Shown: positions 10,601-11,091 of the stretch, one piece after another
How positions within the stretch are numbered: position 1 is the stretch's first letter
How the letters are laid out: each line of letters begins with the position of its first letter
Virus record (IMG/VR): IMGVR_UViG_2561511241_000003
DNA length: 37,150 bases
Reading direction: 5' to 3' (one strand)
Source: a virus
Lineage: Duplodnaviria; Heunggongvirae; Uroviricota; Caudoviricetes
Translations under genes and position numbers: made by a program
Notes under the pieces: model-generated
What the model was told of the DNA's origin: nothing
Seen by the model: only the letters and a program-made list of their open reading frames with translations
The model's database searches: none

Positions 10601-11091
10601 TATGCAGCCCTCACGATATAGTTAAATGCAACATTTCGTGGGCGGGTTTCGTTACCGCCAGGGAGCTGAAAAGCGTTGATAATCCCACCGCTTGCCTGAC
10701 TTATTCCATCCGTGTACAACCCGCCACCGGCACTGTCGCTGAGTGCAAATGTTTTTGATGGTGAACTGTTTGAAGCTGGTCCCCAGTATTTTAATGCGAG
10801 CTTTCTGACTTCATCACTCTGAATACTCAATAAAGCACGCCCTGTATCAATGCTGCGCCCATCATCCCAGCCACGAATAAACTCACCGCGGAGATCAGGT
10901 AGTTTCCCTGATGGATATGCTGTAGCAAGACGGGGATATTTAACCTTATCAAAGGCAGCGCCATTGCATTTCAGCCAGCCTGTTGGCGGCGTAGCTGAAG
11001 GCCACGGGAACAGGGGACACCAACAGGTAATGCAGAGCCTTCTCCCAAACCAAGGTATGCGAGAAGACCAGCCACATCCTTTCCACTCAAA
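10600..11091 (-). other. tail-fibre C-terminal receptor-binding region, in a different frame from the H constant part
   Basis: My hand translation shows this frame open from 11091 to 10600, encoding ...PWPSATPPTGWLKCNGAAFDKVKYPRLATAYPSGKLPDLRGEFIRGWDDGRSIDTGRALL..., a typical fibre-tip motif set. It is offset by one nucleotide from the H frame. Confidence 0.6.

Follow-up and report, generated by a model that had tools for sequence, protein, structure and literature searches.

Invertible fibre segments are known from Mu (G/Gin), P1 (C/Cin), e14 (P/Pin) and p15B (Min). The locus described here is part of a 37,150-nucleotide stretch of DNA (the window), which represents a P2-family prophage of the porcine ETEC strain E. 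coli UMNK88 (CP002729.1) and is located between serS and dmsA. As in Mu, P1, e14 and p15B, a serine invertase gene lies adjacent to the fibre gene and 26-bp crossover sites are situated within it, and likewise a constant N-terminal part is joined to alternative tips, each of which is then followed by its own chaperone gene. The fibre switch is of the classical, already well-known Gin/Cin/Pin type. It consists of a serine invertase, two inverted 26-bp sites within the fibre gene H and two C-terminal tips, each with its own chaperone, which were assigned as follows:

8567-9175, minus strand: serine DNA invertase gene of the Gin/Cin/Pin/Hin type (Resolvase, PF00239, E = 2e-51; HTH_7, PF02796, E = 2e-12)
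9195-9581, plus strand: silent alternative fibre tip with a gp53-like C-terminal domain (Pfam PF21882)
9220-9245, plus strand: left 26-bp crossover site, AAGTTAAAAACG TT GGTTTGGGAGAA, inverted repeat, central TT at 9232-9233
9583-10026, plus strand: tail-fibre assembly chaperone of the silent tip (Caudo_TAP, PF02413, E = 1e-32)
9998-10600, minus strand: tail-fibre assembly chaperone of the currently joined tip (Caudo_TAP, PF02413, E = 1e-32)
10600-11039, minus strand: currently joined fibre tip, Collar and receptor-binding end, out of frame (open frame 11091-10600)
11040-11065, minus strand: right 26-bp crossover site, on the gene strand TTCTCGCATACC TT GGTTTGGGAGAA, inverted repeat
11054-12101, minus strand: constant N-terminal part of H (Phage_tail_fib, PF12571, E = 2e-62)

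The invertase reading frame comprises 202 amino acids when read from the first ATG and 199 amino acids according to gene callers, and the gene displays no differences from the copy in E. coli ETEC4085 between positions 8567 and 9175. Two matches to the crossover site were identified in the window, compared to 0.11 expected by chance. The two Caudo_TAP chaperone genes are convergent, one belonging to each tip. In-silico inversion of the 1822-bp segment joined the constant part of H to the other tip in frame and resulted in a protein of 465 amino acids; an intact in-frame fusion in the alternative orientation had been predicted in a preliminary description of this DNA. Both orientations occur in nature: in 9 viral contigs the tip junction comes after a long constant part of H, and in 45 it is preceded by a short upstream frame that ends in a stop. 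Some of the matches in E. coli span only the tip part of the query. In the orientation present in the window, H is in frame only once two private extra bases are removed, whereas all relatives are in frame.

With respect to the silent tip, 464 bp of ETEC4085 (L003 19248-19711), which are located there between directly repeated crossover sites, are missing at position 9224-9246 of the window. The deletion leaves a hybrid silent tip of 128 amino acids (9195-9581), exact copies of which occur on at least 24 contigs. As the deletion is common to at least 24 contigs, it is an established variant of a once multi-segment switch.

The tail genes V, W, J, I and H are encoded on the minus strand and those for the tape measure and gpU on the plus strand, as determined by Pfam searches and gene calls. 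The whole sheath-tube-E-T-U block (2967-8538) is located on the strand opposite to V-W-J-I-H. It is inverted compared to the P2-like phage of E. coli O157:H43 T22 (L072) and to the O157:H7 prophage (L002), the arrangement is common to the window and ETEC4085, and the top-ranked E. coli genomes match the block in a few joined pieces. No further crossover-like sites bounding the inverted sheath-to-U block were found, the window having only the two known ones. At the serS-proximal end of the window (1-1019), a gene for a YafO-family toxin (1-381, minus strand) and an adjacent open reading frame of 212 amino acids adjoin the prophage genes ogr and D. The prophage integrase is very widespread, with 5804 matching blocks; UMNK88 was not among the places listed.

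In the present orientation, the open reading frame of H extends from 12101 to 10971 on the minus strand, encodes 376 amino acids and ends with ...GSALPVGVPCSRGLQLRRQQAG / ...LAYLGLGEGSALPVGVPCSRGLQLRRQQAG. The neighbouring frame is open from 11091 to a stop codon at 10600-10602 and reads ...PLFPWPSATPPTGWLKCNGAAFDKVKYPRLATAYPSGKLPDLRGEFIRGWDDGR...RAA. The end of H at 10971, the open adjacent frame from 11091 to 10600 and a GGGG run at 11013-11016 had all been given in the preliminary description and were found exactly at these positions, and reading of the open reading frames also bore out that the constant part does not continue in frame into the currently joined tip. The break is defined by two features:

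10971-10973, minus strand: premature stop codon in the shifted frame (reading of the open reading frames)
11006-11016, no strand assigned: lesion consisting of two extra G on the plus strand, one each in GGG at 11006-11008 and GGGG at 11013-11016

The lesion was defined by alignment to ETEC4085, the O157:H7 prophage and seven further assemblies (L064-L070), all of which possess the canonical GTCCCTGTTCCGTGG on the gene strand, where UMNK88 reads GTCCCCTGTTCCCGTGG. It comprises two +1 insertions located five bases apart, each of which adds a C to one of the two proline codons of the conserved VPVPW, and lies 24-34 nt downstream of the right crossover site (11040-11065) on the gene strand. A single-nucleotide change had been proposed to separate the two frames; this did not hold, as the difference from intact relatives consists of two +1 insertions in two short runs. 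Deletion of both extra bases resulted in ...GVPVPWP... and a fibre of 499 amino acids, and alignment of this joined protein to related fibres revealed 100% identity to the ETEC4085 fibre over the full 499 amino acids. Addition of one base to the CCCC run also restores a frame, but gives ...GVPLFPWP..., which did not occur at the junction in any relative within the sampled sets. Within the repaired protein, a Collar domain (PF07484, E = 4e-14) was identified at residues 361-408. As this domain begins exactly at the break, the adjacent frame is not a chance open reading frame, in line with the earlier view that it encodes a convincing fibre tip, and the 376-amino-acid product would be devoid of the whole receptor-binding end.

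To determine the distribution of the junction variants, short junction queries were designed, all 28-mer seeds of which include the critical bases. The canonical 43-nt junction was present in 246 of the 5426 complete E. coli genomes (263 places), whereas the double insertion was found in none of the 5426, and neither was any of the two single-insertion intermediates. Within IMG/VR, the canonical junction occurred in 58 contigs and the double-insertion junction in none, and a 34-nt junction with both insertions was absent from species-representative genomes and metagenomes. A 19-mer of the variant gave 16 matches, which came from unrelated taxa, had random-looking flanks and, with about 4 expected by chance in the genome collection, were attributed to chance. 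No templated donor carrying GTCCCCTGTTCCCGTGGCC was found among phage contigs.

Fibres do not naturally end at the position of the break, a possibility that had been raised earlier, as 55 of the 58 viral contigs have a further 141-186 codons in this frame before a stop is reached. In the other three the frame is open to the contig end. Unrelated sequence interrupts one silent copy. This interrupted silent tip is located on IMGVR_UViG_2588254059_000001 (L045) at about 4137-4168, straight after ...PVPWPSA; similarity to a related tip, with about 79% identity, returns only after some 390 nt of the query and 370 nt of the subject, and the interruption is probably an insertion or rearrangement. The fibre gene is annotated with its full 1500 nt in the three relatives that were inspected, ETEC4085, O157:H7 ECP19-2498 and phage 'P2' of O157:H43 T22. 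At the protein level, the intact form of 499 amino acids is present on 161 contigs and the truncated form of 376 amino acids on one contig only, CP002729.1 (AEE55634.1). In the cluster of the truncated protein, most listed members are fibre proteins labelled 'partial' with a length of 331-368 amino acids, indicating that draft assemblies commonly break at the inversion junction. In carrier genomes the junction occurs in multiple copies, at up to 4 places per genome and at 3 in ETEC4085.

These data bear on the idea that the break marks a slippage-prone contingency tract, which would switch one tip on and off as a second layer above DNA inversion. The break is situated in G/C homopolymers and a one-base change in length restores a frame, which would agree with such a tract. 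However, slippage is frequent at roughly 7 nt or more, and the two runs have lengths of only 3 and 4 nt in the window, against 2 and 3 nt in every relative. No length polymorphism was observed among the 5426 complete E. coli genomes, where no length variant stood against the 246 genomes with the canonical junction, and in IMG/VR no double insertion stood against the 58 viral contigs. In addition, the ancestral protein would only be regained by two coordinated changes. Thus, the locus displays neither the long conserved tract nor the tract-length polymorphism of a slipped-strand locus, and a contingency function of the runs is effectively refuted by the population data and so improbable that it may be disregarded.

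Alternatively, the extra Cs might be real and read through by ribosomal frameshifting, which would provide trace amounts of full-length fibre and an orientation-specific attenuated state above the inversion switch. This could occur by +1 slips of tRNA-Pro at CCC-U and CCC-G or by a single -1 slip on C-CCC, the latter opening the ...GVPLFPWP... frame. Both insertions are located in proline codons and create CCC-N quadruplets, and such quadruplets allow rare tRNA-Pro slippage, but two successive rare slips would result in a negligible yield. Inspection revealed no X XXY YYZ heptamer, and the two-frame arrangement is absent from every homologue. The break was therefore rejected as a programmed ribosomal frameshift site, since it shows neither a slippery motif nor a conserved two-frame arrangement and the homologues are single-frame; read-through of this kind is highly improbable.

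Further information on the origin of the two bases came from sister prophages and from a second interrupted gene within the window:

14698-16010, minus strand: IS3-family insertion splitting the tail-completion gene S, same insertion in L064 and L070

The element, which we take to be IS629-like, separates gene S into two fragments (14524-14688 and 16008-16484), indicating that the prophage was already defective. Sisters sharing the 464-bp deletion were found by a look-up of the hybrid silent-tip protein, and L064 (CP137721.1) and L070 possess both the IS insertion in gene S and the 464-bp deletion as in UMNK88. Seven additional places resembling L064 and one resembling L070 were listed in the look-up, while L064 and L070 themselves were inspected. 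In both, H is intact and encodes 499 amino acids, and since these sisters carry the same IS, the frame break is either younger than the IS insertion or not real. The two extra bases are unique to the UMNK88 assembly, and H is intact in the sisters.

Besides the IS insertion and the 464-bp deletion, 8 substitutions and 3 single-base indels distinguish the ETEC4085 prophage from the window over about 36 kb, and two of these three indels represent the H lesion. Among the 184 homopolymers of at least 5 nt in the window, a single one differs from ETEC4085, at position 17081, where UMNK88 has the intact version. At this position the window has G6 and ETEC4085 has G5 (L003 26251) within a lysB-like (DUF2570) gene. 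The gene is intact in the former and carries a pseudogene annotation in the latter. Homopolymer differences between the assemblies thus go in both directions.

Comparison of UMNK88 to L064 over 14.4 kb revealed five indels, and in every case a homopolymer is extended by one base (+1) in UMNK88. Four of the indels are arranged as two pairs with a spacing of 5 and 7 nt, each located beside a repeat boundary, and two such pairs would occur under random placement with P of about 5e-5. The first pair is the H lesion; the second is located 16-23 nt from the IS end, within the terminal repeat. The fifth is an extension from A6 to A7 at the transposase frameshift site. The UMNK88 copy of the IS thus has three additional +1 bases of its own within homopolymers (about 15630, 15987 and 15994), and owing to A7 at about 15630 it contains an uninterrupted transposase open reading frame of 404 amino acids (14740-15954, minus strand). 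In 1813 genomes, the canonical IS end was detected at a total of more than 11,000 places; the UMNK88 variant of this end, with two extra bases 7 nt apart, was absent from all 5426 E. coli genomes searched. The A7 variant of the IS frameshift site also gave no match in a search whose low-complexity filter may mask the run. Apart from the lesion, H is unchanged, the remaining codons of the 499 matching the sisters.

The two extra bases may be a real, private and recent inactivating mutation in a decaying prophage, which would have arisen by one complex event or by two +1 events. The product would then be a stub of 376 amino acids without Collar and receptor-binding tip, and inversion would still restore a complete fibre with the other tip. 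Several observations would agree with such a mutation: the IS in gene S, which is also present in the sisters, relaxes selection on the tail genes, the assembly is accurate elsewhere, even at long homopolymers, and homopolymer pseudogenes do occur in this prophage family, e.g., the lysB-like gene of ETEC4085 (G5 versus G6). However, H has no other change and its 499 codons are otherwise as in the sisters, it is very unlikely that two +1 events happened independently at a distance of five bases, and no intermediate was found in any collection searched. In addition, the paired +1 signature recurs at the IS end, where the terminal repeat would be damaged, and the sisters with the same IS insertion have intact H. 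We therefore consider a real mutation possible but unlikely.

Indels that are exclusively +1, paired, repeat-adjacent and private rather point towards an artefact, and the pattern found here, private to one assembly, directional and clustered, is the one by which an artefact would be recognized. Judged from these sequence comparisons, the H frame break is likely a local error of base calling, assembly or finishing in the UMNK88 assembly of 2011, suggesting a technical rather than mutational cause of the two extra bases. Each of two short C runs close to the crossover site, at a distance of a few tens of bases, would have received one base too many, within a junction stretch that is conserved, multi-copy and assembly-breaking and for which both orientations may be mixed in culture. 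The true sequence would then be GTCCCTGTTCCGTGG, and the strain would encode the same intact fibre of 499 amino acids as its sisters. Both sites of paired indels were probably bridged with poor-quality sequence during assembly or finishing. Sequencing error had been put forward before, and it stands as a live explanation, though not in the form of a one-base G/C change, since two bases are extra.

The UMNK88 genome was presumably sequenced by a 454-based approach. Its RefSeq accession, which we take to be NC_017641.1, is absent from the 2026 RefSeq complete-genome set, and no match with 100% identity to the window was obtained in this set; the absence of NC_017641.1 is compatible with a quality exclusion of the UMNK88 assembly. 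Some observations argue against a technical error. The assembly is otherwise accurate, as 183 of the 184 homopolymers of at least 5 nt agree with ETEC4085, so that there is no sign of a general problem with homopolymers, and consensus errors are not typical of runs of 3-4 nt. Furthermore, the IS in gene S already inactivates the prophage, and a real frameshift would come at no cost.

The break is real in the deposited sequence, but the underlying biology is ordinary: the fibre switch is a well-known one, and its two-base frame error is confined to a single old assembly and probably technical in origin. Accordingly annotated features need to be read with care: AEE55634.1 ('phage tail collar protein', 376 amino acids) and the two small open reading frames that follow probably represent an intact 499-amino-acid fibre gene that was split, and the 'fused' transposase open reading frame in the UMNK88 IS may share the artefact origin. 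More generally, frame breaks near inversion sites or IS ends in early assemblies should not be equated with phase variation or pseudogenisation without read support. Were the mutation genuine, an already disabled prophage would simply have acquired one more unremarkable lesion.

Compared to the known invertible fibre segments of Mu, P1, e14 and p15B, the locus also has a conserved junction peptide, GLGEGSALPVGVPVPWPSATPPTGWLKCNG, after the crossover site. It differs from these systems in that the host element is a P2-family prophage and that the joined tip is two bases out of frame in one assembly. Among phage records, the closest one is that of Peduovirus magyaro ('Escherichia phage P2' of E. 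coli O157:H43 T22, KC618326.1), which has the same H, chaperones and invertase and displays 93% identity over 81% of the switch region. Unlike the window, KC618326.1, ETEC4085 (CP122634.1) and CP137721.1 all possess an intact H of 1500 nt (499 amino acids), and the sheath-to-U block of KC618326.1 is oriented as is usual for P2. The ETEC4085 prophage contains one more invertible sub-segment than the window, and CP137721.1 has the IS insertion in common with it. Homopolymer contingency loci are similar in showing a frame shift in a G/C run, but the runs in the window are far too short and non-polymorphic, and two sites must change together. With regard to errors of early next-generation assemblies as generally known, the window differs in that long homopolymers elsewhere are correct, whereas the likeness lies in clustered +1 extensions that are adjacent to repeats and occur in one assembly only.
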